Shown here: positions 2,731-61,113 of the stretch, piece after piece
Position numbering within the stretch: position 1 is the first letter of the stretch
Layout: each line of letters starts with the position of its first letter
NCBI GenBank assembly: GCA_050118655.1
Contig: JASFKL010000001.1
Location: forward strand, 186 to 64,185
Reading direction: 5' to 3'
DNA from: Gammaproteobacteria bacterium
GTDB taxonomy: Bacteria; Pseudomonadota; Gammaproteobacteria; GCA-001735895
Length of the DNA: 64,000 nucleotides
The notes under the pieces: generated by a model
The model's input: the letters and a program-made list of their open reading frames with translations, nothing else
What the model was told of the DNA's origin: nothing
The model's database searches: none
Translations under genes and position numbers: made by a program

Positions 2731-4500
2731 ATGTTTCCCATTTCGAAGCCCCTGCCCGGGGACCGTAATCTGTTGGCCTATCCGCTGTTCGCGCTGTTGG
2801 TGGCGGGATGCGCGAACCTGCAACCCGCGCCCGATGCCGGCGGAGCGGACGCGGAGCCGATCCGGGCTCAGGACGCAGGCGACAACAGGCAGCAAATTGA
2901 CTCGCGCCTCGATGCGGTGGCGCTGGCTTCGGCCGGCTCGGTATATGTCGCTTACGATTTCGATTTCGAAAGCCAGCTGAAAATGGCCGAGACAGAGGCC
3001 GCCGAAAGACAGCGCGCGGCCGAGGCCGAAGCCAGGGCGGAAGCGGAGATCGTCGCCGCGATCAAGGCGGACCTGGAAGCGACCCGCAAGAAACACGATG
3101 CCTGGCTCAGGCTGCAACAGGGCATGCAATTGTCCGAGGTCCACAATGAGCGCGTCAACGCCCAGCTCAAATGGTTCGTCGATCACCCCGGATACATGCA
3201 ACGCGTGATGGAGCGCGCCCGTCCGATCCTGCCGTTCGTGCTCGACGAGCTCGAAGCGCGCAACCTCCCCAGCGAACTGGCCCTGCTGCCGATCGTCGAG
3301 TCGGCTTACCAGGCATTCGCCTATTCCCACGGACGCGCCTCGGGCATGTGGCAAATCATCCCCTCGACCGGCCGCTTCCTCGGGCTCAAGCAAAACTGGT
3401 GGTACGACGGACGTCGAGACATCATCGAGTCGACGCGCGCGGCGATCAATTATCTGCAGCAGTTGTCGCAGGAATTCGACGGCGACTGGGAACTCGCGCT
3501 CGCGGCCTACAACGCGGGGCCCGGCAGGATCCGCAGCGCGGTTCGCTACAACCGCTATCGGGACCGGCCGACCGATTTCTGGAGTCTGACCCGTATTCGC
3601 AAGGAGACCCAGGCTTACGTGCCGAAGATGTTCGCGCTCAAGGAAATGTTTACTCATCCGGAGAAGTACCAGCTCGACCTGTTGCCGATCAACAACCAGG
3701 TCAGTTACGAAATCGTCGAGCTCGACGGCCAGATCGATCTCGCGCTGGCCGCGGACCTGGCCGGAATCTCGGTGAATCAACTCTATCAGTTGAACCCGGC
3801 CTTCAATCGCTGGGCGACCGCGCCCGACGGGCCGCATCGCCTGCTGCTGCCGCGCGGCAAGGCGGATCATTTCAGGCACGAAGTCTCCAAGGTACCGAGT
3901 ACCAAGCGCATCAACTGGGTGCGGCACAAGATCAAGAGCGGTGAAACGCTGAGTGAAATCTCGCGACACTACCGGACTTCGGTGGCGCTGATCAGGGAAG
4001 TCAACAATATCCGCGGCAGCCATATCCGCGCCGGCAAATACCTGATGGTTCCGACGGCCACCAAATCGCTGAGAACCTATACCCTGAGCGCGAGTTCGCG
4101 GCTGGCAGCCCTGCAGAACACCGACCGCGGCGGAACCCGCCAGGAGCACATCGTGCGTCCGGGACAGAGCCTGTGGAGCATCTCGCGGAGCTACGGCGTC
4201 ACCACGCGGGCGCTCGCCAAGTGGAACGGCATGGCGCCGATCGATACCCTGCAGGTGGGACAGAAGCTCGTCGTATGGACCAGCGCCCAGGCGCGCAAGG
4301 TCAGTATCAGTCAGACGCGGCCCAGTAACGCATTACACGCGCTGCGCTACACTGTCCGCAAGGGAGATTCACTGTATCTCATCGCGGATCGCTTCAATGT
4401 CAGCATCGCGGATATCAGGCGCTGGAACCGGCTCGGCAAATATTTGCATCCCGGGCAAAAAATCAAACTTTACGTCGACATCACCAGTCAGTCCGGCTAG
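2731..4500 (+). CDS. mltD: Membrane-bound lytic murein transglycosylase D (lipoprotein, SLT domain + C-terminal LysM repeats)
   Basis: Lipobox LLVAGC; SLT catalytic region ...ESAYQAFAYSHGRASGMWQIIPSTG...; at least three LysM-like repeats in the C-terminal third; synteny with rnhA/dnaQ. Confidence 0.9.
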   Translation: MFPISKPLPGDRNLLAYPLFALLVAGCANLQPAPDAGGADAEPIRAQDAGDNRQQIDSRLDAVALASAGSVYVAYDFDFESQLKMAETEAAERQRAAEAEARAEAEIVAAIKADLEATRKKHDAWLRLQQGMQLSEVHNERVNAQLKWFVDHPGYMQRVMERARPILPFVLDELEARNLPSELALLPIVESAYQAFAYSHGRASGMWQIIPSTGRFLGLKQNWWYDGRRDIIESTRAAINYLQQLSQEFDGDWELALAAYNAGPGRIRSAVRYNRYRDRPTDFWSLTRIRKETQAYVPKMFALKEMFTHPEKYQLDLLPINNQVSYEIVELDGQIDLALAADLAGISVNQLYQLNPAFNRWATAPDGPHRLLLPRGKADHFRHEVSKVPSTKRINWVRHKIKSGETLSEISRHYRTSVALIREVNNIRGSHIRAGKYLMVPTATKSLRTYTLSASSRLAALQNTDRGGTRQEHIVRPGQSLWSISRSYGVTTRALAKWNGMAPIDTLQVGQKLVVWTSAQARKVSISQTRPSNALHALRYTVRKGDSLYLIADRFNVSIADIRRWNRLGKYLHPGQKIKLYVDITSQSG

Positions 4501-4617
4501 ATCCGGCGCTGCCATGGCGTTGCCGCGAGAATTTGTCCGCAGGTAGTTGCTTTATCCCGACCCAGACGCCAAAATAGACTTTTACGTGCGAACGACGAAG
4601 GGTTCCCCAACAAGATT

Positions 4618-5673
4618 ATGAGCCTTGAAATTGATCCCAAACAAATAAAATCCTTCTCTCCGATCAATTCTCTGAATCCAGAAAACGCTCAAGAATTAGT
4701 CAACAAAATTACCGCTACCCCGATCCAGGCGGGCCACTATATCTTCAAGAAAGGTGATATGGACAAGGCGCACGTCTACGTGCTCTCGGGCGAAGTGGAG
4801 CTGGTGCAGGACAAAAAGGTGGTCAAGACCATCAAGGCGGGCTCCCCGGAAGGCATGCAACCGCTGGCGCACGGATTTCCCCGGCCGGTGTCGGCGCGCG
4901 CCAAGGTCGCCTCGGTGGTCACCAAGATCAACAGCGACATGCTCGACATCATGCTGACCTGGGACCAGTCGGGCAGTTACTCGGTAGAACCCGTCGACGA
5001 AGAAGACGAAGAAACCGACTGGATGACCCGCATCCTGCAAACCCGGGCCTTCCATCGCATTCCGCCGGCCAATATCCAGGCGATGTTCATGCGCATGGAA
5101 TCGGTCAGCTTCAAGCCCGGCGAGAAAGTGATCGAACAGGATGCCGAGGGCGATTATTTCTACATCATCAAGGAAGGCCGTTGCCTGGTCACCCGCTCCA
5201 CGCCGGCCAACCCGAATGGCGTCAAGCTGGCGACCCTGTCGGTGGGCGACAGTTTCGGCGAGGAAGCGCTGATCTCCGACAGCAAGCGCAACGCGACGAT
5301 CACGATGCTGTCCGAGGGGCATTTGATGCGCCTCAACAAGGAGGATTTCAACTCGCTGCTGAACGAACCGCTGCTCAACTGGGTCGATTACGACGAGGCC
5401 AGGAAACTGGTCGATGCGGGCGCCGTCTGGTTCGACGTACGCCTGCCTACCGAGCACAAGGCCAAGCACATCAAGGGCAGTATCAATATCCCGCTGATTT
5501 TCCTGCGCATGAAGGCCAATTCGCTCGATACCGAAAAGAAATACGTCATCTATTGCGATACCGGCCGGCGCAGCTCCGCGGCCTCTTTTCTACTCAACGA
5601 AAAGGATATCGAGACCTTCGTATTGCGCGACGGCGTCGATACCGCCGAGCCCTCCGACCTGGTTACCAGCTAA
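4618..5673 (+). CDS. Tandem cyclic-nucleotide-binding (CAP-ED) domains fused to a C-terminal rhodanese domain with catalytic Cys (CDTGRRS)
   Basis: Two cNMP-binding cores (YIFKKGDMDKAHVYVLSGEVELV... and YFYIIKEGRCLV...VGDSFGEEALI with the hallmark FGEEAL); rhodanese motif VWFDVRLPTEH...YVIYCDTGRRSSAAS. Confidence 0.8.
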   Translation: MSLEIDPKQIKSFSPINSLNPENAQELVNKITATPIQAGHYIFKKGDMDKAHVYVLSGEVELVQDKKVVKTIKAGSPEGMQPLAHGFPRPVSARAKVASVVTKINSDMLDIMLTWDQSGSYSVEPVDEEDEETDWMTRILQTRAFHRIPPANIQAMFMRMESVSFKPGEKVIEQDAEGDYFYIIKEGRCLVTRSTPANPNGVKLATLSVGDSFGEEALISDSKRNATITMLSEGHLMRLNKEDFNSLLNEPLLNWVDYDEARKLVDAGAVWFDVRLPTEHKAKHIKGSINIPLIFLRMKANSLDTEKKYVIYCDTGRRSSAASFLLNEKDIETFVLRDGVDTAEPSDLVTS

Positions 5674-5702
5674 CGCGCCTCGACGCCGTCGGATCCCGCC
5701 GC

Positions 5703-7307
5703 TCAGCCGGCGTAGCCCGGGATTAGCGATTCGTCTATTTCGTCGATCTGCTCCGGATCGAGAAACTCCTCGGCGTAGTCGAGGTAAACCCGCTCGCGAA
5801 TGAAGATCTCGAAGATATCGGGATCGATGTGATTGTCCTTTTTCATGAATCCCATGATGCGCAGGCACTCGGACAGTTTCTTGCCATGCTTGTATGGCCG
5901 ATCGCTGGCGGTCAGGGCCTCGAAAATATCGGCCACCGCCATAATCCGGGCCTGTACCGACATTTCCTCCCTTTTGAGCCCGCGCGGGTATCCCGTGCCA
6001 TCCATTTTTTCATGATGTCCGCCGGCATACTCGGGTACGTTTTGCAAATTGCGGGGAAACGGCAGCGATTCCAGCATCTTGATGGTCGCGACGATATGGT
6101 TGTTGATGACTTCCCGCTCTTCATCGTTCAGCGTGCCGCGCTTGATACACAGGTTCATGACCTCGTCGTCGGTCAAAAGCGGCCGCGTCTCGCCGGACCC
6201 GTCCACCCATTCGAGCCCGGCGAGTTGCTTTACCCGGTCGATATCCTCGTCGCTCATGAATTCGCCGCCGACATTGGCCTTGCGCAAAAATTCGAAATCC
6301 TGCCGGTATTGCTCGCGACGGGATTCGAGATCCCTGTCCAGTTGTTCGACATCGGCCTTCGATCCGTTTGCCGCTAGACGTTTTTTCAAGTATTCGATTT
6401 CGGCGTCGCGCTGCAGGATCACGAAACGGGTTTCCAGCGCATTGATACGATCGTAAATCGTTTCCAGCTTGGTGGCCTTGTCCATCACGTACTCGGGGGT
6501 AACCACCTTGCCGCAATCGTGCAACCAGGCAGCGGTCTCGAGTTCGTAGCGATCCTTGTCGGTAATTCTGAAATCCTTCAGCGGCCCCTTGTCGTCCTGG
6601 TGCGCGGCCTCGGCAAGCATCATCGTCAATACCGGAATCCGCCGGCAATGACCGCCGGTATAGGGCGACTTGTCGTCGATCGCCGAGGCGATCATGCGGA
6701 TAAAAGATTCGAACAGGATTTGCAGTTCCGAGATCAGTCTCCGCTGGGTCAGCGCGACGGCTGCCTGGGAAGCCAGTGACTCGGCGAGTTGCTGTTCGAC
6801 GGCGCTGAAAACTTTGACCTCGCCGGTTTGCTCGTTCCTGGCATTGATCAATTGCAGCACGCCGATGATTTCCTTCTCGTGGTCCTTGAGCGGAAAGGTC
6901 AGCATGGAGCGGGTGCGGTAACCGGTCTTTTCGTCGAAGGCCCGCGTGCCCGAGAAATCGAAGCCGTCCTCGTTATAGGCGTCGGCAATGTTGATGGTTT
7001 CTCCGGACAGTACGCAGTGGGAGACGACGTTGGCATGGTTATCCTTGCCTTCGATCGACAGCGGTATCGCCGGAAAAGTGATTTCGTTACCCGAGGTACC
7101 GCCCATCTGTATATCGAGCGAATCGTTGGAAATGATCTCGAATCTGAGTTCGCCGTCGTTCAGAAAATACAGCGAGCCGCCATCCGCGTGGGTGAGCGAT
7201 TTTGCTCCCATCATGATCAGCTCGAGCAGCTTGGGCGTATCGTTTTCCGCCGACAGCGCGATGCCGATTTCATTTAACCGATCAATCCTGTCGAGCAATT
7301 CTGACAT
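5703..7307 (-). CDS. GAF-domain / HD-GYP-domain phosphodiesterase (probable c-di-GMP-specific)
   Basis: N-terminal GAF-like fold; HD motif AAWLHDCGKVVTPEY and GYP motif GGHHEKMDGTGYPRGL. Confidence 0.85.
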   Translation of the reverse strand: MSELLDRIDRLNEIGIALSAENDTPKLLELIMMGAKSLTHADGGSLYFLNDGELRFEIISNDSLDIQMGGTSGNEITFPAIPLSIEGKDNHANVVSHCVLSGETINIADAYNEDGFDFSGTRAFDEKTGYRTRSMLTFPLKDHEKEIIGVLQLINARNEQTGEVKVFSAVEQQLAESLASQAAVALTQRRLISELQILFESFIRMIASAIDDKSPYTGGHCRRIPVLTMMLAEAAHQDDKGPLKDFRITDKDRYELETAAWLHDCGKVVTPEYVMDKATKLETIYDRINALETRFVILQRDAEIEYLKKRLAANGSKADVEQLDRDLESRREQYRQDFEFLRKANVGGEFMSDEDIDRVKQLAGLEWVDGSGETRPLLTDDEVMNLCIKRGTLNDEEREVINNHIVATIKMLESLPFPRNLQNVPEYAGGHHEKMDGTGYPRGLKREEMSVQARIMAVADIFEALTASDRPYKHGKKLSECLRIMGFMKKDNHIDPDIFEIFIRERVYLDYAEEFLDPEQIDEIDESLIPGYAG

Positions 7308-7400
7308 CTACTGGCACCTGCCCCTCGCGGAGGCCGAGCTACGCGAGCTTCGAAAGTCGCTCTATTCTAGGTGAATCCCCGGGCATTTCAATTCCGGGCC

Positions 7401-7416
7401 GGTTAAATTTTTAACC
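7401..7416. promoter_or_regulatory. Inverted repeat GGTTAAA-TT-TTTAACC in the divergent promoter region between the HD-GYP gene and the CHASE2 kinase operon
   Basis: 7-bp perfect arms with 2-bp spacer, seen directly in an AT-rich 327-bp intergenic region. Confidence 0.3.
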
Positions 7417-7634
7417 CCAAGCACTGGTAAAAAAGCGCATTCAACCTTATAGTTTAGAGGCATCACGATTCATAAGAATACCGGGGGGGATCCAAGCTGT
7501 TAACCAGTTCAAGGTGTTCGCATAAACTATTGAATATTATACGAATCGGATTTCTTCATTTTCCGGTCGCACACCCAGTAAAGTACGACTATAACAAGCT
7601 GGGTGACTAATAAGAATCAAACTATGGAGACGGT

Positions 7635-10265
7635 ATGAAAACCCGTTTTTGGAGTAGCGACTGGTTCGCCGGGCTGCTGATTACCATCGTGATTGTGGCG
7701 GTCTCGGGTTCCGGCCCCTTCCAAAGCCTGGAGCGCTCGTTTTACGACTGGGGCGTGCGCTCGACCGACAGGACTCCCTCCGACAAGATTGCGATCATCG
7801 CCATCGACGACGAGAGTATCGACAACCTGGGCCGCTGGCCCTGGCCGCGCGACCTCCACGCCGAATTGATCAACCGGCTTTCCGAGGGCGGAGCCAAGGT
7901 CATCGGTCAAACCGTATTTTTCCTCGAACCCCAGGTCGATCCGGGGTTGACCTATATCCGCGAACTGATCGAGTTTTTCTCTACCGCGAGCTTCGGCGAC
8001 GTTCCCGCCGATATCGATGCGCTGGGCGCGATGCTGGAACTGGGCGGCAACAATCGCAAGATAAACGATATCCTCGAATTCTATCTCCAATCGAGCCTGA
8101 ATACGCGTCTCAACCAGGATATCGAAACCCTGAAATCCCGAATGTTCGAAGCCGAGCAGGCGCTCAACACCGACGCCAAGCTCGCCGAGAGCATGGAAAA
8201 AGCCAAGAACGTCGTGCTGGCGATGGTCTTTTACCTGGGCATCCCGCGCGGCAAGCCCGACGAGGAACTGCCCGACTACGTGCTGAAAAACTCGATCAGC
8301 CAGATCCGTGACCGCGTATCGGCACAACCCAACGGCCTGTTCCCGATTCCGACCATCGATGCGCTGACACCGATTCCGGAAATCGGCCGCTACGCGGCGG
8401 CGATCGGCCATCTCAATACCCTGCCCGATATCGACGGCGGGGTTCGTTCAGAGCCGCTGGTGCTGCAGTACTACGACCGCTTCTTCCCGTCGATATCGCT
8501 GCAAATCGCCGCGCGCAGCCTGAACCTCGACACCAACGACATCCGCGTCAATCTGGCGGAGAGCGTCGAACTCGGCAGTCTGGCAATCAAGACCGATACC
8601 CAGCTGCAGATGAATACCTTTTACTACTCGAATCGCGATGGTTTTCCGGCATTTCCGGTGGATTCGTTTTACGACGTATTCACCGGCAAGATTCCGATCG
8701 AAAAGTATCGCGGCAAGATCGTTTTGATCGGCCCCACCGCCACCGGCGTCGGTACGCCGCAGGTCACTCCCATCGATCCCGCAATGGCGCCGGTACTGAC
8801 GCTCGCACACTCGGTTTCGAGCATCCTCAAGGAGGATTTTTTCATCGAGCCCGAATGGGGCTTCTGGGCGCGCATGGGTACCTTCCTCGTGGTTGCGCTC
8901 TACCTGATGCTGCTGATGCCGCGGTTAAAGGCCGGTGTCGCTTTCGTGGTCACCACGGTGCTGGTGCTGGCACTGATCGCCACCCATTACATACTGATGA
9001 CCGGCAGCACGATGTGGATTCAGTTGATGACCCCGGGGGCCCTGCTGGTGATCGGTTACCTGTTGATCACCACCAAGAGATTCCTGGTCACCGAGCGCGG
9101 CAAGGCCAAATCCGACGTGGAATCGGCCGAGAGCAACCGGATGCTGGGTATCGCATTTCAAACCCAGGGTCAACTCGACATGGCGTTCGAAAAATTCCGC
9201 AAGTGCAGCCCGGTCGACGAACAGGTGCTCGAGGCGATGTACAACCTGGCGCTGGATTTCGAGCGCAAGCGGCAATTCAACAAGGCCACTTCGGTGTACC
9301 AGTACATGGCCAAGCACGACAAGAGCTTCCGTGATATCGAAACCCGTATGAACCGCGCGCAGAAGATGGAAGAAACCGTCATGCTCGGCGGTAGCGGCGG
9401 ACATGCGGGCGGCACCCTGCTGCTCGATGGCAGCGGTGTCGAAAAACCGATGCTGGGCCGTTACGAAGTCGAAAAGGAACTCGGCAAGGGCGCCATGGGT
9501 ATCGTCTACCTGGGCAAGGACCCCAAGATCAGCCGGGTCGTGGCGATCAAGACCATGGCCCTGGCGCAGGAGTTCGAAGCCGACGAACTCGACGAGGTCA
9601 AGGAGCGGTTCTTCCGCGAGGCGGAAACCGCGGGGCGCCTGAATCATCCCAATATCGTAACCATTTACGATGCCGGCGAGGAGCACGATCTCGCCTATAT
9701 CGCGATGGAATTTCTCAAGGGCTACGACCTTACGAAACACTGCAAGCCCGATAACCTGCTGGAAATGAATACCGTGGTCAGCATCGTCCAGCGCGCCGCC
9801 GAGGGCCTCGATTTCGCGCACCGGCAAAACGTCGTGCACCGCGATATCAAGCCGGCCAACATCATGTACGAGCCGGAATCGGATACCATCAAGATTACCG
9901 ATTTCGGTATCGCGAGAATTACCGATTCGAGCAAGACCAAGACCGGGATGGTACTCGGCACGCCCTCTTACATGTCTCCCGAACAACTGGCGGGCAAAAA
10001 AGTCGATGGACGTTCCGACCTGTTTTCACTCGGCGTCATGCTTTACCAGATGCTTTGCGGATCCCTGCCCTTCAAGGCGGATTCGATGGCCAGTCTGATG
10101 TTCAAGATCACCAACGAAGAGGCCCCGGACATTCGCAGCGTGCGCGAGGATATACCCCATGGCCTGGTCGAAGTAATCGCCTTGGCCATGACCAAGGATG
10201 CCGACCAGCGATATCAGACAGGAGCCGATTTTGCCAATGCATTGAAAGCATTTCTGAATAATTGA
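7635..10265 (+). CDS. CHASE2 sensor domain - transmembrane - TPR-like linker - Hanks-type Ser/Thr protein kinase
   Basis: CHASE2 signature IIAIDDESIDNLGRWPWPRDLHAELI; hydrophobic helices around residues 410-470; kinase motifs LGKGAMGIVY, HRDIKPANIM, DFGIA, GTPSYMSPE; RBS GGAGA upstream of the ATG. Confidence 0.85.
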   Translation: MKTRFWSSDWFAGLLITIVIVAVSGSGPFQSLERSFYDWGVRSTDRTPSDKIAIIAIDDESIDNLGRWPWPRDLHAELINRLSEGGAKVIGQTVFFLEPQVDPGLTYIRELIEFFSTASFGDVPADIDALGAMLELGGNNRKINDILEFYLQSSLNTRLNQDIETLKSRMFEAEQALNTDAKLAESMEKAKNVVLAMVFYLGIPRGKPDEELPDYVLKNSISQIRDRVSAQPNGLFPIPTIDALTPIPEIGRYAAAIGHLNTLPDIDGGVRSEPLVLQYYDRFFPSISLQIAARSLNLDTNDIRVNLAESVELGSLAIKTDTQLQMNTFYYSNRDGFPAFPVDSFYDVFTGKIPIEKYRGKIVLIGPTATGVGTPQVTPIDPAMAPVLTLAHSVSSILKEDFFIEPEWGFWARMGTFLVVALYLMLLMPRLKAGVAFVVTTVLVLALIATHYILMTGSTMWIQLMTPGALLVIGYLLITTKRFLVTERGKAKSDVESAESNRMLGIAFQTQGQLDMAFEKFRKCSPVDEQVLEAMYNLALDFERKRQFNKATSVYQYMAKHDKSFRDIETRMNRAQKMEETVMLGGSGGHAGGTLLLDGSGVEKPMLGRYEVEKELGKGAMGIVYLGKDPKISRVVAIKTMALAQEFEADELDEVKERFFREAETAGRLNHPNIVTIYDAGEEHDLAYIAMEFLKGYDLTKHCKPDNLLEMNTVVSIVQRAAEGLDFAHRQNVVHRDIKPANIMYEPESDTIKITDFGIARITDSSKTKTGMVLGTPSYMSPEQLAGKKVDGRSDLFSLGVMLYQMLCGSLPFKADSMASLMFKITNEEAPDIRSVREDIPHGLVEVIALAMTKDADQRYQTGADFANALKAFLNN

Positions 10266-10279
10266 GCCCAGACTGTTTG

Positions 10280-11104
10280 ATGAATTTGCAAAACAAGATA
10301 ACCATCCAGGGCCTGACTGACACGGGGATAGTGCGCGGCAAGAACGAGGACGCGATCGGTTATGACAGCGCGCTGGGTCTCGTGGTTCTCGCCGATGGCA
10401 TGGGAGGTCATCGCGGCGGCGAAATAGCCAGCAGTATGACCGTCGATACGGTTATCAATCTCCTGCAGCAGCGGCTGCCGGAAATCAACTCCGGCGACGT
10501 CGACGAAGCCAGTGGATTTTCGATGGAGTCGATTTGTATCCAGGATGCCGTGGTCGCGGCCAACGAACTGGTCTACAAGACCGCCGAGGCCAATCCCGAA
10601 CACAAGGGAATGGGCACCACGATCGTGGTATTGCAGTTCTACAACAATTCCTTCTCCCTCGCCCATATCGGCGACTCGCGCTGTTATCGTCTGCGCAATG
10701 ACAAGCTCGAACAGATTACCAAGGATCACTCCCTGTTACAGGAACTCATCGACCGCGGCTTCTATACGCCCGAAGAAGCGCGCAATTCGATGAACAAGAA
10801 TCTCGTGACGCGTGCCCTGGGCATCGATCCGATCGTCATGCCGGACATACAGGAGGATATAGTCCTGAAAAATGACATATATTTGCTATGTTCAGATGGG
10901 TTAACGGATTTAGTCGAAGACGAAGATATATACTTAACTATTAAGCAATTTAGTGCTAATCTAGAAGAAGCTGCCAAGCAATTGATTACAAAGGCAAACC
11001 AGAATGGCGGAAAGGATAATATTTCGGTAATGCTGTGCCGGATTGACGATGATTTTTCGTCCCGGCAAGGCTGGTTCAACAAGATTGTCGGCTGGTTCGA
11101 CTAA
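10280..11104 (+). CDS. PP2C-family Ser/Thr protein phosphatase
   Basis: GLTDTGIVRGKNEDA...VLADGMGGHRGGEIAS...LLCSDGLTD; the track ORF starts at TTG 10262, but the ATG at 10280 is preferred; immediately downstream of the kinase stop (10265), within 4 nt of it in the TTG model. Confidence 0.85.
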   Translation: MNLQNKITIQGLTDTGIVRGKNEDAIGYDSALGLVVLADGMGGHRGGEIASSMTVDTVINLLQQRLPEINSGDVDEASGFSMESICIQDAVVAANELVYKTAEANPEHKGMGTTIVVLQFYNNSFSLAHIGDSRCYRLRNDKLEQITKDHSLLQELIDRGFYTPEEARNSMNKNLVTRALGIDPIVMPDIQEDIVLKNDIYLLCSDGLTDLVEDEDIYLTIKQFSANLEEAAKQLITKANQNGGKDNISVMLCRIDDDFSSRQGWFNKIVGWFD

Positions 11105-11150
11105 CGGATTACACACCCAGTACAAACTACTCTACAGGCTGGATAATAAA

Positions 11151-11873
11151 ATGGTCGCAAAACTGATCACTACTTCAAGCACGGGCGAAAAAACCGAGTA
11201 TGAACTGGTCAATGAAACCACCACGATTGGGCGTAAGCCGGGTAACGATATTCAAATCGATAATCTGTCAGTCAGCGGCAGGCATGCGCAGGTAATCACC
11301 ATCCTCGAAGATTCATTTCTGGAAGATCTCGGCAGCACCAACGGCACTTACGTCAACGGCAAACTGGTAAAAAAACACGCGCTCGAAGACGGCGACAGTA
11401 TCACCCTGGGCAAGTATCAAATCACCTACCAGAATAACTCCGGCGGCGGTGAACAGGATTTCGAACAAACCATGATTATCCGCCCCGGCGAAGCGGGCAT
11501 GCCCGAAGAAGCCGGCAGCAAGGAAATCGACAAGTCGGTGCAAAAAATTTCAGCGGCGATCGCCTCGGAGGCAGCCAGCACAGCCTCGTCGCCGATGTCT
11601 AACAAGGAAGCCTGCCTGCAATTGCTCAGCGGCGCCAACGCCGGCAAGGAGCTGGTATTGACCAAGGCCCTGACCACCATCGGCCAGCCGGGTGTGCAGG
11701 TGGCGGCGATCACCCGCCGTCCGCAAGGCTTTTTCCTGATTCACGTCGATGGCGGCCCGAACAACAATGTCCCGAAAGTCGGCGGCTCGGAGATCGGCTC
11801 GAACGCGCACGAACTCAAGAGCCACGACATTATCGAAGTAGCCGGCGTAAAAATGGAGTTCTACCTCAAATAA
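11151..11873 (+). CDS. FHA-domain protein (phospho-Thr reader); second half is FHA-like
   Basis: TTIGRKPGNDIQIDNLSVSGRHAQV...STNGTYVNGKLV is an FHA core; start chosen at MVAKL (11151), after the PP2C stop at 11104. Confidence 0.75.
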   Translation: MVAKLITTSSTGEKTEYELVNETTTIGRKPGNDIQIDNLSVSGRHAQVITILEDSFLEDLGSTNGTYVNGKLVKKHALEDGDSITLGKYQITYQNNSGGGEQDFEQTMIIRPGEAGMPEEAGSKEIDKSVQKISAAIASEAASTASSPMSNKEACLQLLSGANAGKELVLTKALTTIGQPGVQVAAITRRPQGFFLIHVDGGPNNNVPKVGGSEIGSNAHELKSHDIIEVAGVKMEFYLK

Positions 11874-11913
11874 AGCCGTTCCTGCTCGTCCGCATTGAAA
11901 CCGGGGGCAAACA

Positions 11914-14145
11914 ATGCAATTACAGCGCATAGTCAGGCTGGTGCTTAGCGCACTGATCCTGCTGGTCATCCTGCTCGACACCTCCGGAGTTTACAAGTAT
12001 CCATTCATCAAGCAGCTGGAAAACTGGACTTACGACGCGCGGCTGAACTTTACCCGTCCCGATACCGTCGACGATCGCGTGGTTATCGTCGATATCGACG
12101 AAACCTCGCTCGCCGAGGTCGGCCGCTGGCCCTGGGGTCGCGACCAGCTCGCGCGCATCGTCGACAACCTGTTCGACTTTTACGGGGCCGACGTGGTCGC
12201 CTTCGATATCGTATTCGCCGAAAAAGACGAGAGCTCCGGACTGGAACAGTTCGAGCAGCTGGCGCGAACCACGTTGCGCGGCGACGAGGAATATATCGAG
12301 GCGCTCGATAAGATCCGGCCGAGCCTCAAACACGACGAAATTTTCGCGCAGAGCCTGGTCGGTAAAAACGTCGTTCTCGGCTATTACTTCAAGTCCAGGT
12401 TGCAGGAAGGAGAAAGCGGTGTCACCGGCCTCCTGCCCCCCGCATTGACCAGGATGGACAGGCAGTGGAGCGAACGCCTGCCGATCAACAAGGCGGTAGG
12501 CTACGGCGGCAACCTGGAAATACTGCAAACCTCGGCACGCTCCGGCGGCTACTTCGACAACCCCTTCGTCGATGCCGACGGCGTATTTCGCCGCGTGCCG
12601 CTGGTGCAGTCCTACCAGGGCTACCTGTTCGCCTCGCTGGCTCTCGCCACTACCCAGGCGTATCTCGACGCCGACGGTATCGAGCTGGCGATCGAAACCG
12701 AGGGAACGCGCGGCGAGAACGAATATTTCGCGCTGGAGACGATTAACCTGAAGAATCACAAGATTCCCGTGGACGCCAACGGCGCGGTGTTCGTGCCCTA
12801 CCGCGGCAGGCAGGGAAGCTTTCCCTATATCCCCGCCCACGAAGTGCTGAGCCGCAAGACCAACCCGCTGGCGCTAAAGAACAAGATCGTACTGATCGGC
12901 ACCTCGGCACCGGGCCTGCTCGACCTGCGCTCTACTCCAGTACAAAACATTTATCCCGGGGTCGAGGTCCATGCCAATATCATTTCCGGCATCCTCGACG
13001 ATCGTATCAAGCACAAGCCGGCCTGGACGGTGGGTTACGAACTCGTGTTACTGATAGTCATCGCGGTCAGCATGGCCTTGCTGTTGCCGCTGGTTTCGCC
13101 GCTGCTGGCGGCGACCGGGACGCTCGGGATTACCGGCCTGGTGGTCGCCGGAACCTTCGTCGCCTGGAACAACAACCTGATCCTGCCGCTGGCGAGCCCG
13201 CTGCTGCTGATTCTGTTGCTGTTCATGCTGCACATGTCCTACGGATTCTTCATCGAGTCCCGTGGCAAGCGGCAGCTCGCTAACCTGTTCGGGCACTACA
13301 TACCGCCCGAACTGGTCGACGAGATGAGCGAATCGCCCGAGGAATATTCGCTCGAGGGCGAGAACCGTGAAATGACCGTGCTGTTTTCGGACGTGCGCGG
13401 ATTCACGTCGATCTCGGAAGGCATGGACCCGAAACAGTTGACCCAGCTCATGAACGCGCTGTTGACGCCGATGACGCGCGTCATCCACAAGAACCGGGGT
13501 ACGATAGACAAGTACATGGGAGATGCCATCATGGCCTTCTGGGGCGCGCCGCTGGCCAATGCCGAGCATGCCCGGCACGCGCTCTATGCCGCACTCCAGA
13601 TGATGGAAGAACTGAAGATAATGCAGGAAGACTTCAAGCAACGCGGCTGGCCGACGGTCAACATCGGTATCGGCTTGAACACCGGCGACATGAACGTCGG
13701 CAACATGGGATCGGAATTCCGCATGGCTTATACCGTGCTCGGCGACGCGGTCAACCTGGGTTCGAGGCTCGAGGGCCTGACCAAGGAATACGGCGTCAAC
13801 ATCATCGTCAGCGAATCCACCAAGGCGGCGATACCCGAATTCGTATTCCGAGAACTCGACCTGGTCAGGGTGAAAGGCAAGAACGAACCGGTCGCAATTT
13901 TCGAACCGGTCGGGCACAAAAACGATCTCGACAAGTCGGTCACCTCGGAGATCAGCGAATACCGCAAGGCATTGATGAACTTTCGCTCCCAGTCCTGGGA
14001 CAAGGCCGAGCTCGATTTCTTCAACCTCAACCGCATCAACCCGGACCGGCAGCTATACCAGGTCTACCTCGAACGTATCGCGGTCTACCGCAGGGAGCCG
14101 CCCGGAGAGGGCTGGGACGGCGTTTTTACGCACACCACGAAGTAA
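11914..14145 (+). CDS. CHASE2 sensor domain - transmembrane - class III nucleotidyl cyclase (probable adenylate cyclase)
   Basis: CHASE2 signature VVIVDIDETSLAEVGRWPWGRDQLARIV; TM segments around residues 365-440; cyclase core MTVLFSDVRGFTSISE...TIDKYMGDAIMAFWGAP...YTVLGDAVNLGSRLE with Lys in KxxGD. Confidence 0.85.
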   Translation: MQLQRIVRLVLSALILLVILLDTSGVYKYPFIKQLENWTYDARLNFTRPDTVDDRVVIVDIDETSLAEVGRWPWGRDQLARIVDNLFDFYGADVVAFDIVFAEKDESSGLEQFEQLARTTLRGDEEYIEALDKIRPSLKHDEIFAQSLVGKNVVLGYYFKSRLQEGESGVTGLLPPALTRMDRQWSERLPINKAVGYGGNLEILQTSARSGGYFDNPFVDADGVFRRVPLVQSYQGYLFASLALATTQAYLDADGIELAIETEGTRGENEYFALETINLKNHKIPVDANGAVFVPYRGRQGSFPYIPAHEVLSRKTNPLALKNKIVLIGTSAPGLLDLRSTPVQNIYPGVEVHANIISGILDDRIKHKPAWTVGYELVLLIVIAVSMALLLPLVSPLLAATGTLGITGLVVAGTFVAWNNNLILPLASPLLLILLLFMLHMSYGFFIESRGKRQLANLFGHYIPPELVDEMSESPEEYSLEGENREMTVLFSDVRGFTSISEGMDPKQLTQLMNALLTPMTRVIHKNRGTIDKYMGDAIMAFWGAPLANAEHARHALYAALQMMEELKIMQEDFKQRGWPTVNIGIGLNTGDMNVGNMGSEFRMAYTVLGDAVNLGSRLEGLTKEYGVNIIVSESTKAAIPEFVFRELDLVRVKGKNEPVAIFEPVGHKNDLDKSVTSEISEYRKALMNFRSQSWDKAELDFFNLNRINPDRQLYQVYLERIAVYRREPPGEGWDGVFTHTTK

Positions 14146-14151
14146 TACCGT

Positions 14152-15390
14152 TTACCAGCAGGCGCGTAATTCCCGCGCCAGTATGCCGACGCCTTTTTCG
14201 AGTTCCTCCTCGCTCTGCGCATAGTTCATGCGCACGCAACTCTCGGCGTGCGCGGACACGTTCTGCTGCCCGGGAAAGAAGTACTTGCCAGGCACGACCA
14301 GTAAACCGTTGCGCTTGAGCCGCTGGTAGAGTTCGGTAGTGGTCACGCCGAGATCTTCGAACCACAGCCACAGGAACATCGATCCCTCGGGTTTGTGGAT
14401 GTGCAGCCGCGGATCCTCGATCGCCTCGCGCAGCAGCCTGACCGCGAGTTCCGAGCGCTGCAGGTAAAACGGCCGGATGATATCGTCGCAAAGCGGTTGC
14501 AGGGCATCGTCGACGATCAGCTGGCGGACGATTTCGGCGCCGAGACCCGCCGGCGCGAGGCTGGTTATCGCGGTCATGTTGGAAAAATAGCGAATCAACT
14601 CCTCGTTGGCGATCACGATCCCGGTACGCGCGCCGGGCAACCCGAGCTTCGACAGGCTCATGCAAACGATGCAGTTATCGTTCCAGAAGGGATTGACGCC
14701 GGTGAATATGATGTTCGGGAAAGGCGTGCCGTAGGCATTGTCGATCAACAGCGGAACGTCGTGGTCGCGGGCGATCTGGTCGAGTTGCCCGCACTCGGCG
14801 TCGGTGAGCACGTTGCCGCTCGGATTGGTAGGCCGAGAAACGCAAATCAGGCCCACGGAATCGTCGGCCTCGAGCTGCTCGAAGTCGACCTGGTACTTGA
14901 AAAACCCGTCATCGAGGTGCTGAATCCTGGCCTCCTGGCTGGCGAGCAATCCCTCTTCGATACCGACGTCGCAGTAGCCGATATACTCGGGCACCAGCGG
15001 GATCAGAACGCGTTTACGGCCTTGCCTCGAGCGGCCGGCAAAAGAATTGAATAGAATGAAGAACGAACTCTGGCTACCGTGGGTCAAGGCGATATTGCGG
15101 CTGCTGATCGGCCAGCCGTAACGATCCCGGAAGTACTCGGCCAGCGCTTCGAGAAAGCCCGCCCTGCCCTGCGGCGCATCGTAGTTGGAAAGCGCCTCGA
15201 CCAGGGCGCCCGATTCCCGCAGTTTGTCGAGCACCTGGCCCACTATCTTCTTGACCTCGGGGATCGAAGCGGGATTGCCGCCGCCGAGCATGACCACGCC
15301 GGGTTGCGCGAGACCCTCGCTCAAATCGTCCATCAGGTGGGTAATACCGGAGTAACCGTTGAAATGTTCGCCGAATTCAGAAAATTTCAT
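14152..15390 (-). CDS. avtA: Valine--pyruvate aminotransferase (class I/II aminotransferase)
   Basis: Near full-length collinearity with E. coli AvtA: FGEHFNGYSGITHLMDDL...MLGGGNPASIPE...CMSLSKLGLPGARTGIV. Confidence 0.88.
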   Translation of the reverse strand: MKFSEFGEHFNGYSGITHLMDDLSEGLAQPGVVMLGGGNPASIPEVKKIVGQVLDKLRESGALVEALSNYDAPQGRAGFLEALAEYFRDRYGWPISSRNIALTHGSQSSFFILFNSFAGRSRQGRKRVLIPLVPEYIGYCDVGIEEGLLASQEARIQHLDDGFFKYQVDFEQLEADDSVGLICVSRPTNPSGNVLTDAECGQLDQIARDHDVPLLIDNAYGTPFPNIIFTGVNPFWNDNCIVCMSLSKLGLPGARTGIVIANEELIRYFSNMTAITSLAPAGLGAEIVRQLIVDDALQPLCDDIIRPFYLQRSELAVRLLREAIEDPRLHIHKPEGSMFLWLWFEDLGVTTTELYQRLKRNGLLVVPGKYFFPGQQNVSAHAESCVRMNYAQSEEELEKGVGILARELRACW

Positions 15391-18865: not shown

Positions 18866-18942
18866 TGGCGGAGTGGACGGGACTCGAACCCGCGACCCCC
18901 GGCGTGACAGGCCGGTATTCTAACCAACTGAACTACCACTCC
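18866..18942 (-). tRNA. tRNA-Asp (GTC)
   Basis: Manual fold: 77 nt, anticodon loop cuGUCac, 3' CCA encoded; near-identical to E. coli tRNA-Asp. Confidence 0.85.
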
Positions 18943-18950
18943 AGATTAGG

Positions 18951-19026
18951 TGGTGGGTGCTGACGGGATCGAACCGCCGACCCTCGCCTTGTAAGGGCGA
19001 TGCTCTCCCAGCTGAGCTAAGCACCC
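18951..19026 (-). tRNA. tRNA-Val (TAC)
   Basis: Manual fold: 76 nt, anticodon loop cuUACaa, 3' CCA encoded; close to E. coli tRNA-Val(UAC). Confidence 0.85.
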
Positions 19027-25705: not shown

Positions 25706-25791
25706 TGGTGCGAAAGGAGAGACTCGAACTCTCACATCGTAAAGATACCAGAACCTAAATCTGGCGCGTCTACCAATTCCGCCACTTTCGC
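25706..25791 (-). tRNA. tRNA-Leu (TAG)
   Basis: Manual fold: 86 nt with long variable arm, begins GCGAAAGTGGCGGAATTGGTAGACGC, anticodon loop uuUAGgu, CCA encoded. Confidence 0.8.
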
Positions 25792-25892
25792 AGTCGTTTC
25801 GTGCCTGCCTGATTACCGGACGCCGTGCCGCGCTCCGCGTCGCCGCGCGGAGTCGAAAACTAACGGCGCCTGCATCGCAGGCGCCGTGTGTA

Positions 25893-25969
25893 TGGGGTGG
25901 ACGATGGGGATCGAACCCACGACAACAAGAATCACAATCTTGCACTCTACCAACTGAGCTACGCCCACC
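25893..25969 (-). tRNA. tRNA-His (GTG)
   Basis: Manual fold: 77 nt including the -1 G, anticodon loop uuGUGau, ends ...CCACCCCA as in E. coli tRNA-His. Confidence 0.85.
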
Positions 25970-25975
25970 ATAATT

Positions 25976-26052
25976 TGGCACGCCCGGCAGGATTCGAACC
26001 TGCTACCCTCGGCTTAGAAGGCCGATGCTCTATCCAAATGAGCTACGGGCGC
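25976..26052 (-). tRNA. tRNA-Arg (TCT)
   Basis: Manual fold: 77 nt, anticodon loop cuUCUaa, CCA encoded. Confidence 0.83.
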
Positions 26053-26055
26053 TTC

Positions 26056-26195
26056 GGATACCTCTCTCACGGCGTATTTTAGCCGATTGCTGCGTTGCCG
26101 CCGTGCTCGGATCCTCATGTATGTCTTTATACACTGCGGTCCTGCGCGCGGCGGCGCCTTGCACTCAACTAAAATACGCCGTGAGAGAGGCATCC
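26056..26195. repeat. About 140-bp element bounded by 27-bp terminal inverted repeats (1 mismatch; 22-bp perfect core CCTCTCTCACGGCGTATTTTAG / CTAAAATACGCCGTGAGAGAGG) with a nested inner IR; MITE-like or large RNA hairpin in the tRNA operon spacer
   Basis: Perfect 22-bp IR at 26061-26082 vs 26169-26190 seen directly; inner IR GCCGCCGTGC / GCGCGGCGGC; abuts the 5' end of tRNA-Arg. Confidence 0.6.
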
Positions 26196-26393
26196 TCCAG
26201 TTCAAATTCCGACCGGTCATCCTAAACCTTTTGTATCCCCGGATTGCCGCCGTAGGGGAGGCAACCTGGATTCGTCTTGCCGGCGATAATTCCATTAATA
26301 TACGCGCCAATCGCGTATTCGGATGCCGGGAACCTGCCGTTTCCTCGAACCCCCGATATCCGGGGTGCAATGATAGCAAATTCCCGACAAAAT

Positions 26394-26470
26394 TGGTCGG
26401 GGTGGAGAGATTCGAACTCCCGACCCACTGCTCCCAAAGCAGTTGCGCTACCAGGCTGCGCTACACCCCG
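26394..26470 (-). tRNA. tRNA-Pro (TGG)
   Basis: Manual fold: 77 nt, anticodon loop uuUGGga, CCA encoded. Confidence 0.85.
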
Positions 26471-41800: not shown

Positions 41801-42418
41801 GGCTACCGGCTCGGGCGTCGCGATCTCGTTGCCAGAGCCGTCATCCGACAAGGCGATCGGCTCGCTGAGCTGCTCGCCGGTTTCGGCAGACTCGGCGGAT
41901 TCGGATTCCATGGTGCTGGTCACGCCGGTCTGCTCGACGATATCGCTGACACTCGATTCGTCGCTGATCGGTGCGGCGGCCTGCTGGCTGGCAGGCTCTA
42001 CGGGCGGCGGCTGATCGGCATAGAACGGCGGGTCGAGCAAGACCGTGAATTCGCGCAGTACCCTGCCCTTGGCCCAATCGGCCTCGATGAGGAAATTCAG
42101 AAAGGGTTCCTTGACGCCGTCCTTGGTGGACACCACGATGACGGCCTCGTCGCCGGCCTCGTTCTTCCTGACGGAAAAACGCAGGTCCAGAAGATTGCGC
42201 GGGCGTGCCAGGCCGGCGCGGGAAAATGCTTCGCGGGAAGCGAGGCTGACCAGTAAATCGTCGATCTCGCCGGGACGGGCGGAAATAACCGGGATCTCCG
42301 CTTCTAGCGGCTGGTTCAGGAATGACTTGACTTCGATCTCACCCAAACCCAAGGCGAGCGCGTTGGTCGGCAAGATCGCCGTTAGCCACAATGCAACTAT
42401 TAGTCCCAGATTACGCAC
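38804..42418 (-). CDS. fimV: FimV-like peptidoglycan-binding pilus/polar-organisation protein (signal peptide, LysM, hyper-acidic repetitive linker, TM helix, C-terminal FimV TPR motif)
   Basis: LysM YVNKGDTLWSIAKLY...; TM MGGIFSDPITLAALGGVVLLLVALLVI; C-terminal DLARAFIDMGDTEGARGSLEEVIAEG; asd-fimV-truA synteny. Confidence 0.85.
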   Translation of the reverse strand: MRNLGLIVALWLTAILPTNALALGLGEIEVKSFLNQPLEAEIPVISARPGEIDDLLVSLASREAFSRAGLARPRNLLDLRFSVRKNEAGDEAVIVVSTKDGVKEPFLNFLIEADWAKGRVLREFTVLLDPPFYADQPPPVEPASQQAAAPISDESSVSDIVEQTGVTSTMESESAESAETGEQLSEPIALSDDGSGNEIATPEPVAQPEPEPIADSSSYQYTPSSSQTGLDQEVYVNKGDTLWSIAKLYKDDRHSMSQVMLAFQRANPDAFNDGNINNMKEGAILRAPDAAELDAMGEQEAYAEVLVQNGLWDEYVARVTGVSTTAAVDQGESAESTESAGGETADTGESGGELSLLLPADGGGDSAGTGDGAEVEELRTKLAMAEEELEASRIENRELESRISDLQARLSKVEELQKMVEIEDDSLARLQADQSAQQPEAGASEGGEPVEEPPAEAGNGKVESSEDALIEELLAEEAAAQAEEEAAKAPAASDDGMVSDEGTAGGMVEDEAAGQAPAAEMGSTEGMAADEGEEAATGGQSDDQGQAAQQTTPPAPVIVTEQTKREPSFLDGILPAGAADMIPSMPSMGGIFSDPITLAALGGVVLLLVALLVIKRKKNSSDSESTITASGDEDLFADDEEELTPIHLADVELPEDTDIKTPSDEDIPSADELDTMTSTAEVTAEVPPQAEDDFAQTSIISATDMPEPEAPAPAATAEPAEQDDVLNEVDVYLAYGLYDNAEELLNSSLTDNPDRADYRSKLLDTYFATKNESAFVKEAEKLKSMGDAATRYWDRVQIMGYELAPDNPLFSEAKDSDLSAADLEIANPQEADFDLGADDDDTSFSTTDFDLGADDTGGDFNEDESGGDDDSLPPTQVIQQVDELPELGEEEVAATQVVQQVGDFPDLGEDDETNLNQRAEEPEDSGLDLPDDIGDELEFSIDDEDTVGAGESADQADDELDMAMDFDLDDGTTDDDPSDFDLGEDLGFADDDDGGDEIEDSIELEVPEEDGADDFLEATAVVSSDELEASLLGGDDSESDDDEGIDLGMDDTGIMDLNDPSLDTGELQLPTDDDGDIDDDEDVSILDFGADDFEEPTALVESAGDDDSLSIDVDMEDDDEEARTGTFAPGDFDEPTAVADAADLDDIDDLMLPDDVDEVSTKLDLARAFIDMGDTEGARGSLEEVIAEGNDAQKEEAQALLEQI

Positions 42419-50264: not shown

Positions 50265-50392
50265 TGACCGCCGGGTATCGAAGCGGGACGCCGCGGATCG
50301 CCTTGATCCCGGTCAAATTGTATCCGCGGGTCATGCCGATATAATTGCGCATTCTCGAAACCGGAATACCGGATTCATTATCGTGCCCTGAA

Positions 50393-54247: not shown

Positions 54248-54306
54248 GGGTTATAGAGGCTCGAAGACGGAGACCAGATTTTATCGCCGTGCGCGCAGAT
54301 TGCCAG

Positions 54307-60877: not shown

Positions 60878-61113
60878 CGAGTCTCCGGACGGGAGGCTGA
60901 CGACGGACAGCCGCCGACTGCGCCTCCGGTTAACATGACTGTTTTCGAAACCTGGAATTCTAAAGCAAATCCCGGATTCGCGCAGCTTTCGATCGCGCAC
61001 CGACAAGACGCGATAGACGAAAACAAAAGGCCCTGCCCCCGAATCGGCGCGGATGAATTCGACCGTCGCCATGTTATCCTTCGTTATTACGGTCCTGGTA
61101 ACGAGGAATTGAA

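Follow-up and report, generated by a model that had tools for sequence, protein, structure and literature searches.

A conserved cluster of two CHASE2 receptors, a Ser/Thr phosphorylation trio and cyclic-nucleotide enzymes in Gammaproteobacteria, with a possible ancestral link to type IV pili

In Gram-negative bacteria, trios of a Ser/Thr kinase, a PP2C phosphatase and an FHA protein are known mainly as gates of type VI secretion. In the H1 type VI secretion system (T6SS) of Pseudomonas aeruginosa, PpkA, PppA and Fha1 form such a threonine-phosphorylation pathway. The small actinobacterial FHA proteins GarA and OdhI carry an N-terminal ETTS phospho-motif and inhibit 2-oxoglutarate dehydrogenase. 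The control of type IV pili by cyclic AMP (cAMP) in P. aeruginosa involves CyaB, CpdA, Vfr and FimV, and the MshEN domains of MshE and PilB bind cyclic di-GMP (c-di-GMP). CHASE2 is among the commonest bacterial sensor domains, and to our knowledge only one set of CHASE2 proteins, the cyclases of Sinorhizobium meliloti, has a known signal. These cyclases (CyaD1, CyaD2 and CyaK) act through the CRP-type protein Clr and the outer-membrane protein NsrA (PMC13001267). In Sulfolobus, a network of the FHA protein ArnA, ArnB, the ArnC-D kinases and PP2A controls the archaellum (bioRxiv 10.64898/2026.08.11.744115). In this study, we analyzed a cluster of six signaling genes that lies between mltD and avtA in a 64,000-nt stretch of DNA from a Gammaproteobacteria bacterium (GenBank assembly GCA_050118655.1, contig JASFKL010000001.1), and compared it with these systems. 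The whole stretch is referred to as the window.

We put at about one in two the probability that the six genes are one conserved signaling module, a two-sensor hub that joins phosphothreonine (pThr), cAMP and c-di-GMP and whose ancestral output is probably type IV pili. That the cluster is a conserved unit, and not a chance juxtaposition, follows from the same neighbors being found both in relatives from its own clade and in distant loci of Burkholderiales type. Taken singly, the proteins are new members of families already known, and it is the cassette as a unit that is distinctive. It joins the kinase/PP2C/FHA trio to cAMP and c-di-GMP enzymes and combines two paralogous CHASE2 receptors, a fusion of cyclic nucleoside monophosphate (cNMP)-binding domains with rhodanese, and a GAF-MshEN-PilB ATPase. 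No description of the cassette was found in the full texts searched, which leave out most subscription-journal papers. The features of the window on which the analysis turns are listed here with their positions and strands.

4618-5673, plus strand: cNMP-binding (two domains)-rhodanese protein, 351 aa (Pfam cNMP_binding 1.9e-28, Rhodanese 1.5e-12)
5703-7307, minus strand: GAF-HD-GYP phosphodiesterase, 534 aa (Pfam GAF 5e-12, HD_5/HD 1.6e-44)
7308-7634: divergent AT-rich intergenic region of 327 nt between the HD-GYP gene and the kinase gene, presumed promoter site
7635-10265, plus strand: CHASE2, three transmembrane (TM) segments, TPR-like linker and Hanks Ser/Thr kinase, 876 aa (CHASE2 5e-51, Pkinase 2.7e-56)
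10280-11104, plus strand: PP2C Ser/Thr phosphatase, 274 aa (NCBIfam Stp1/IreP NF033484, 248.6 bits against a cutoff of 230)
10820-11060, core 10947-10999: nearly invariant AT-rich, rare-codon nucleotide patch within the PP2C coding sequence, seen from third-position identity
11151-11873, plus strand: FHA adaptor, 240 aa (Pfam FHA 1.7e-21)
11914-14145, plus strand: CHASE2, three TM segments and class IIIb adenylate cyclase, 743 aa (CHASE2 4e-60, Guanylate_cyc 4e-23)

An earlier note on this DNA, made from the letters alone, had proposed these six domain assignments and open reading frame (ORF) positions, and all of them were confirmed by Pfam and NCBIfam; of the 51 ORFs in the window, about 47 were scanned. 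The catalytic and ligand-binding motifs that were checked in the six proteins are all intact, except in the degenerate first CNB domain. As with PpkA/PppA/Fha1, the locus groups the genes for a membrane-bound Hanks kinase whose sensor is extracytoplasmic, for a PP2C and for a small FHA adaptor, the components of a reversible pThr switch. Unlike that system, it has a CHASE2 sensor, a degenerate second FHA domain, enzyme partners of cAMP and c-di-GMP, and no T6SS genes. The cyclase shares with CyaD1, CyaD2 and CyaK of S. meliloti the order CHASE2-TM-class III cyclase, through which an extracytoplasmic signal gives cAMP (PMC13001267). In contrast to S. meliloti, no CRP gene or box is present at the locus, the cyclic-nucleotide readers are a CNB-rhodanese and a GAF protein, and the cyclase is coupled to the kinase/PP2C/FHA trio.

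Relatives of the locus were collected by a scan with AvtA, taking one genome per species. The scan gave 26 loci (AvtA identity 68-82%), all from uncultured Gammaproteobacteria, one of which is the Gamma3 endosymbiont of Olavius algarvensis. One contig (L018) ends too early, which leaves 25 informative relatives. In all 25, the CHASE2 cyclase gene stands tail-to-tail with avtA as in the window. The FHA and PP2C genes lie upstream of the cyclase gene in every relative locus that reaches far enough, and 11 relatives have all six genes in the arrangement of the window. The median identities to the window are 94.2% for the FHA protein, 90.5% for PP2C, 88.3% for the cNMP-rhodanese protein, 84.2% for the kinase, 84.1% for the cyclase and 81.5% for the HD-GYP protein. 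The signaling proteins are more conserved than their housekeeping neighbors AvtA (76.9%) and MltD (68%, from two full-length hits only). At the borders of the cluster there is no adjacent tRNA, no integrase and no general composition shift, and its GC content (0.52-0.60) is like that of the flanks, barring one 200-nt patch. The synteny in 25/25 relatives, the high conservation, and the lack of mobility genes and of deviant composition speak against a genomic island or accessory insertion. The earlier note had proposed such an insertion, and had suggested a comparison of the interval from mltD to avtA; the cluster is present at this place in all 25 informative relatives. It had also held that its view would fall if the same genes sat at this locus in the relatives and were already characterized. 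The first is essentially true; for the second, no characterization was found.

Not all parts of the cluster are equally stable. Only fragments of the HD-GYP gene are left in L001, L017 and L002, and it is decayed or absent also in L011 and L021. In these five loci the PP2C, FHA, cyclase and cNMP-rhodanese genes are intact; the phosphatase and the reader persist even where the adjacent kinase gene has been lost. In L008 (CP070646.1, a complete chromosome assembled from a metagenome), the DNA upstream of the kinase gene lacks both cNMP-rhodanese and HD-GYP. Unrelated metabolic genes stand there instead (L008:17800-21236), namely an aldo-keto reductase gene and pieces of genes for an FAD-oxidoreductase and an aldehyde dehydrogenase, which indicates that the left border is rearranged there. 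Because the HD-GYP gene, the kinase gene and the left part vary among the relatives, the stable core is PP2C-FHA-cyclase.

Distant versions were sought by scanning metagenome contigs with the FHA family alignment, and the 80 loci returned were searched with the window domains. Their median FHA identity to the window is 45%. The PP2C gene lies directly upstream of the FHA gene in 59/59 loci, and the kinase was detected in 34 of 42. A CHASE2-cyclase gene directly follows the FHA gene in 23/52, and 33/52 have at least one cyclic-nucleotide (cNMP or c-di-GMP) gene downstream on the same strand. L068, L074, L077, L084, L093, L136 and L142 carry a full, co-directional cassette of eight genes, with domains assigned by Pfam, in the following order.

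Genes 1-4: CHASE2-kinase, PP2C, FHA, CHASE2-cyclase
Gene 5: 234-255-aa protein of the metallo-beta-lactamase (MBL) fold, matching the class II cAMP phosphodiesterase family
Gene 6: cNMP-rhodanese
Gene 7: GAF-MshEN-T2SSE ATPase of about 790 aa (best NCBIfam model PilB, 480.8 bits, below the equivalog cutoff of 675.65)
Gene 8: GAF-HD-GYP

The eight-gene loci were placed in the Burkholderiales through the names on near-identical ATPases. The identities of the distant orthologs to the window are about 49% for the FHA protein, 69-75% for the kinase domain, 49-66% for the cyclase domain, about 59-62% for HD-GYP (59% in L068) and 34-36% for cNMP-rhodanese. The gene set is far older than the clade of the window, and these similar identities suggest that it evolved together. 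Reduced versions were also found: the trio with the phosphodiesterase, with HD-GYP or with the ATPase, and the trio alone between radA and alr-dnaB. In L060, L061 and L102, where the trio lies between radA and alr-dnaB and there is no cyclase gene, an MBL-fold gene resembling class II phosphodiesterases and Apyc1 is located four genes upstream on the opposite strand.

The distant loci also give the module a candidate output, which the earlier note had left open. The HD-GYP gene of L142 is followed by two further genes, one for a type IVa pilin and one for a TPR/PMT_2 (glycosyltransferase-like) protein. Among the loci with at least 1.5 kb of downstream sequence (n=42), 13 have a pilin N-terminal motif on the same strand, 185-934 nt past the last cassette gene; a distance near 200 nt is frequent. 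No such motif was found across 214 kb of upstream flanks. The loci with the motif include minimal cassettes (trio and phosphodiesterase) as well as full ones. Because of the downstream pilin motifs and the PilB-like ATPase within the cassette, type IV pili, or surface behavior, are most likely the ancestral output. The window itself encodes a FimV homolog of 1204 aa (FimV_N 3.6e-37) at 38804-42418 on the minus strand, in an asd-fimV-truA-trpF context. In Pseudomonas, FimV is a hub protein for type IV pili and cAMP (CyaB), and by analogy the organism of the window probably has pili.

Several features are shared with pilus control in P. aeruginosa: the class IIIb cyclase is nearest to CyaB, the extended cassette holds a phosphodiesterase, a PilB-type ATPase with MshEN and pilA, and a FimV homolog is encoded in the window. 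Unlike in P. aeruginosa, where Vfr acts on transcription, control here would be post-translational, through GAF, CNB and pThr. The cassette ATPase also has an extra N-terminal GAF domain and a score below the PilB cutoff, and the output genes are not in the window. In the Arn network, too, an FHA protein, Ser/Thr kinases and a phosphatase regulate a filament related to type IV pili, and the ArnA FHA domain (5a8i) is among the structural matches. However, that network is archaeal and transcriptional, it has no cyclic nucleotides, and the proteins are not orthologous.

Both CHASE2 proteins have the layout of CHASE2 sensors, with one N-terminal TM segment, about 380 extracytoplasmic residues and then three TM segments by hydropathy. 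As the earlier note had held, the two inputs are paralogous; with 22-26% identity between the two CHASE2 sensors, the paralogy is old. The catalytic motifs of Hanks-type kinases are all present (GKGAMG, VAIK, HRDIKPAN, DFG and SPE), and PP2C has the metal-binding motifs of the Stp1/IreP family (RGKNED, DGMGG, CSDG and GGKDN).

The FHA adaptor belongs to a family with 347 representatives at 50% clustering (E<=1e-30), most of them full-length at 230-260 aa. Its N-terminal FHA domain is canonical for pThr binding, with G27, R28, S42, H45, T63, N64 and G65 invariant in 77 sequences, and its best solved-structure matches are GarA and OdhI. The sole conserved element of the linker is the motif ExTMxI, 12 residues past this domain, in which E105, T107 and M108 are invariant and I110 is nearly so (77 sequences, 45-95% identity). 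Many FHA domains prefer ligands of the type pT-x-x-I, which the Thr107 motif fits. The C-terminal 90 or so residues (about 150-240) are strongly conserved (LxVLSGxxAGKELxLTKALTTLGxPGVQVAAITRR) and were modeled confidently as a beta-sandwich by AlphaFold2 (AF2; predicted local distance difference test score about 80). This domain alone was modeled with confidence, and therefore no inter-domain geometry is claimed. In a profile-profile comparison it matched the family's own N-terminal domain with 97% probability (E 8.8e-11). It has the FHA fold with the SxxH and STNG loops deleted, which makes it a degenerate FHA domain. The adaptor thus consists of three elements: a domain that reads pThr, a site that is probably the phospho-acceptor, and a degenerate FHA domain, the last of which presumably binds a partner without phosphate. 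One family member, P0121 (457 aa), is a tandem fusion of two complete FHA/linker/pseudo-FHA units.

The ExTMxI motif and the double-FHA layout suggest a GarA-like phospho-switch. Like GarA and OdhI, the adaptor would be a small one-protein switch, in which the conserved Thr motif is located outside the FHA domain and could be a ligand of the protein's own FHA. Unlike in those proteins, the motif lies on the C-terminal side of the FHA domain (by about 12 residues), and an extra pseudo-FHA effector domain is present. The OdhI model NF041660 gives 65.6 bits against a cutoff of 200, and by context the targets are not enzymes of the tricarboxylic acid cycle.

The cyclase aligned best with P. aeruginosa CyaB (3r5g, 1.4e-35), the Synechocystis Cya1-type/Slr1991-type structure 2w01 and Spirulina CyaC (1wc0). 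It contains the motifs FSDV, DKYMGD, YTVLG and NLGSRLE, and has the sequence characters of class IIIb adenylate cyclases: two metal-binding Asp residues, the transition-state Asn and Arg, and the Lys-Thr substrate pair common to CyaB, 2w01 and CyaC. Because of this class IIIb pair, the product should be cAMP. Members of class IIIb are stimulated by bicarbonate, and the window cyclase is possibly sensitive to it by analogy. In the cNMP-rhodanese protein, the first CNB domain is degenerate, without the FGE and RNAT motifs, and is probably non-binding. The second has FGE213 and RNAT224 and an intact phosphate-binding cassette of the CAP/PKA type. The rhodanese active-site loop is CDTGRRS at residue 313 (CQSGRRS in L068), the catalytic loop expected of the predicted sulfurtransferase.

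The motifs HDCGK and HHEKMDGTGYP identify the HD-GYP protein as a phosphodiesterase of that family, with c-di-GMP or cGAMP as its predicted substrate. Its best solved match, across the GAF and HD-GYP domains, is PmGH of Persephonella (4mcw, 6.8e-36). An insertion of about 110 residues (about 275-387) splits the HD-GYP domain relative to PmGH, and resembles the GAF-associated one described for Leptospira LIC_11189 (PMC12943098). The best non-HD-GYP matches of the GAF domain are the GAFs of PDE5 (1e-18), PDE2, PDE10 and CyaB2. This domain shares 27-31% identity with the GAF of the PilB-like ATPase, which is compatible with a shared ligand. The GAF-HD-GYP protein Tlr0485 of Thermosynechococcus was reported to depend on cAMP at the GAF domain for c-di-GMP hydrolysis (10.1101/2021.11.05.467447). 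With this precedent and the cNMP-type GAF similarity, the link from cAMP to c-di-GMP suggested in the earlier note is plausible. Although the GAF-HD-GYP architecture of Tlr0485 and PmGH is the same, the window protein differs in its insertion, and its ligand and substrate are predicted ones.

From these features, a mechanism can be proposed. The domains and motifs show two membrane sensors, each with CHASE2 on the extracytoplasmic side, that feed two cytoplasmic writers, the Hanks kinase, opposed by the PP2C phosphatase, and the class IIIb adenylate cyclase. In the steps proposed beyond this, the kinase would phosphorylate Thr107 in the ExTMxI linker motif of the adaptor, and the N-terminal FHA domain would bind pThr107 in cis or between molecules, as in a switch of the GarA/OdhI type. 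This binding would alter what the degenerate C-terminal FHA domain holds, and PP2C would reset the switch. On the other branch, the cNMP-rhodanese protein would sense cAMP through its second CNB domain, and the HD-GYP protein probably would do so through its cNMP-type GAF, leading to hydrolysis of c-di-GMP (or a related dinucleotide) and a lower c-di-GMP level. In full cassettes, the MBL-fold phosphodiesterase would erase cAMP, and the GAF-MshEN-PilB-like motor would integrate cAMP and c-di-GMP. Since the adaptor gene sits between the PP2C and cyclase genes and the phosphodiesterase is the most persistent extra neighbor, the cyclase and the phosphodiesterase are the first candidates for adaptor partners on the cAMP branch.

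Several observations weigh against this hub and its pilus output. Three relatives, L002, L011 and L021, have lost all or part of the kinase gene but keep PP2C, FHA and cyclase; this is awkward for a strict kinase-to-adaptor relay, although the three are metagenome-assembled genomes (MAGs). The C-terminal domain of the adaptor is equally conserved in loci with the kinase-PP2C-FHA trio only, and the partner therefore cannot be the cyclase alone. No convincing extra conserved Ser/Thr that might serve as a kinase target was found in the cyclase outside its catalytic core. AF2 confidence is low for the N-terminal FHA domain. The substrates of the kinase and of HD-GYP, Thr107 phosphorylation, the product of the cyclase and the ligand of the GAF domain are predictions from sequence. 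Finally, the window has no homolog of the MBL phosphodiesterase or the PilB-like ATPase and no pilin motif, and for this reason the pilus output may not hold in its clade.

Among the other explanations, the one that survives best, though we consider it unlikely, is that two or three independent systems lie side by side: the kinase/PP2C/FHA trio with a target of its own (cell envelope or metabolism, as for GarA or FhaA), the CHASE2 cyclase with its cAMP readers, and HD-GYP. The trio does stand alone between radA and alr-dnaB in several lineages, with the C-terminal domain of the adaptor conserved there, and some loci without an intact HD-GYP or kinase gene retain the remaining genes. However, independent systems would leave unexplained the fixed order, single strand and adjacency across Beta- and Gammaproteobacteria at 40-50% protein identity. 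Moreover, a cAMP-phosphodiesterase-like gene is retained beside or near the trio even in minimal versions (L106, L108, L124, L127, L132, L134, L137, L138 and L141, and also L060, L061 and L102).

A less probable explanation is a regulator of sulfur or inorganic-carbon metabolism in sulfur-oxidizing chemoautotrophs, in which cAMP from a bicarbonate-responsive class IIIb cyclase gates the rhodanese. The intact catalytic Cys loop of the rhodanese, the class IIIb assignment of the nearest solved cyclases and the presence of the sulfur-oxidizing Olavius Gamma3 symbiont among the relatives all speak for it. However, the same cNMP-rhodanese fusion occurs beside the PilB-like ATPase and pilin in MAGs of soil Burkholderiales and is therefore not specific to sulfur oxidizers. 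In none of the loci examined is the cluster next to sulfur- or carbon-fixation genes.

It is very improbable that the trio is a classical threonine-phosphorylation gate, like PpkA/PppA/Fha1, of a T6SS encoded elsewhere in the genome. The three protein types are the same, the FHA protein matches TagH weakly, and a member of the family is listed in one source as 'predicted component of type VI protein secretion system'. However, the TagH model TIGR03354 gives only 45.7 bits against a cutoff of 120.25, and the 240-aa FHA protein has a different C-terminal part, the degenerate FHA domain. T6SS families had zero matches in the scanned window ORFs, as the earlier note had stated, and no T6SS gene was found in about 85 related loci. 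The recurrent neighbors are instead cyclase, phosphodiesterase, PilB-like ATPase and pilin genes.

The least probable explanation, which we give hardly any weight, is a cyclic-nucleotide anti-phage defense with a Pycsar-like cyclase, a cNMP-binding effector and a PD-T4-6-type kinase: PADLOC does match the kinase to PD-T4-6 (306 bits), the cyclase to PycC (114 bits) and CNB to Pycsar effectors, and the phosphodiesterase of distant loci weakly matches the Apyc1 family, but the PADLOC matches cover generic catalytic and binding domains only, short of a Pycsar or PD-T4-6 assignment, the cyclase is a membrane sensor with an adenine-specifying Lys-Thr pair, the core pattern was not found in viral contigs, and, where defense systems are patchily distributed, this locus is syntenic among housekeeping genes and under strong purifying selection in all relatives.

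A more far-reaching statement can be made tentatively, and we hold it to be somewhat less probable than the hub itself. The locus would represent a previously undescribed, widespread cassette of Beta- and Gammaproteobacteria, in which a pThr switch is hard-wired to a cyclase, a phosphodiesterase and three cAMP readers (CNB-rhodanese, GAF-HD-GYP and GAF-MshEN-PilB) and decides type IV pilus assembly post-translationally. The clade of the window would have a rearranged six-gene version with a regulatory element in the PP2C gene. If true, pilus control would have a third route, one in which pThr, cAMP and c-di-GMP are merged. In hundreds of lineages, the cassette brings into one operon a pair of CHASE2 receptors that differ in output, and it suggests a testable link between Thr phosphorylation and cAMP turnover. 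It provides a genomic hypothesis for the merging of cAMP and c-di-GMP at a PilB-type motor, and gives a context to the otherwise unexplained cNMP-rhodanese fusion. Since the adaptor, PP2C, CNB-rhodanese and HD-GYP proteins are small, soluble and highly conserved, the proposed steps are open to in vitro tests.

The nucleotide patch inside the PP2C gene (10820-11060) is conserved in a different manner from the rest of the cluster. Its GC content is 0.35-0.44 against about 0.58 for the whole window, and its codons are rare ones, with a relative codon frequency of 0.26-0.31 where about 0.45-0.5 is usual. Third-codon-position identity in 17 aligned relatives is 0.87-0.97 in the patch. Elsewhere in the PP2C and FHA genes it is mostly 0.54-0.70, barring the bins that flank the patch and those at the start and end of the FHA gene; five other genes have a median of about 0.62 and do not exceed 0.82. 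The 53-nt core (10947-10999) recurs with at most five substitutions in 22 loci of the clade. The distance from the patch to the FHA start codon, which is downstream of it, is 150-330 nt. A stable RNA was rejected (z +1.15 and +0.79 on the two strands), as was a recognizable sigma-70 or sigma-54 promoter (no match above 8/12). A conserved antisense gene was also rejected, since most relatives have stop codons that interrupt the 106-aa ORF at 10762-11082. The patch is not repeated in the window and has no match in viral contigs. We can only guess that it is a regulatory element for the expression of the FHA and cyclase genes, as the patch is otherwise unexplained. Three MAG contigs (L006, L015 and L020) break off at the patch or no more than 66 nt away, as they would if a sequence common to co-occurring species were handled as a repeat during assembly.

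The start codons of PP2C and FHA are taken as the ATGs at 10280 and 11151; the mechanically called ORFs begin earlier with TTG, at 10262 and 11043. The gaps between the kinase, PP2C, FHA and cyclase genes, read from the sequence, are 14, 46 and 40 nt, within 1 nt of the 15-47 and 40 nt given in the earlier note. With these short gaps, the lack of terminator-like sites in them and the conserved order, the operon it proposed is plausible, and the four genes plausibly form a single transcription unit. The absence of terminator-like sites comes from a promoter and terminator scan of 4400-14400, which gave no excess over shuffles. One sigma-70-like site (10/12) lies in the divergent region, on the minus strand at 7391-7364. 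No CRP/Vfr box (TGTGA-N6-TCACA, at most two mismatches) was found in the cluster, and the count in the window is below that of shuffles.

The domain scans also bore out the housekeeping character of the flanks, with dnaQ, rnhA, a methyltransferase gene and mltD on the left and avtA, fabI, ppiD, lon, clpX, clpP and tig on the right. Three long ORFs of the window have no Pfam match at E<=1e-6: 61087-62919 (minus strand, 610 aa), 50345-51820 (plus strand, 491 aa) and 54235-55323 (plus strand, 362 aa). An Rfam gathering search of the whole window returned six tRNAs only, and no c-di-GMP or other riboswitch. The tRNAs form two clusters on the minus strand, neither of which borders the signaling cluster: Asp and Val at 18866-19026, between ppiD and lon, and Leu, His, Arg and Pro at 25706-26470, upstream of tig.

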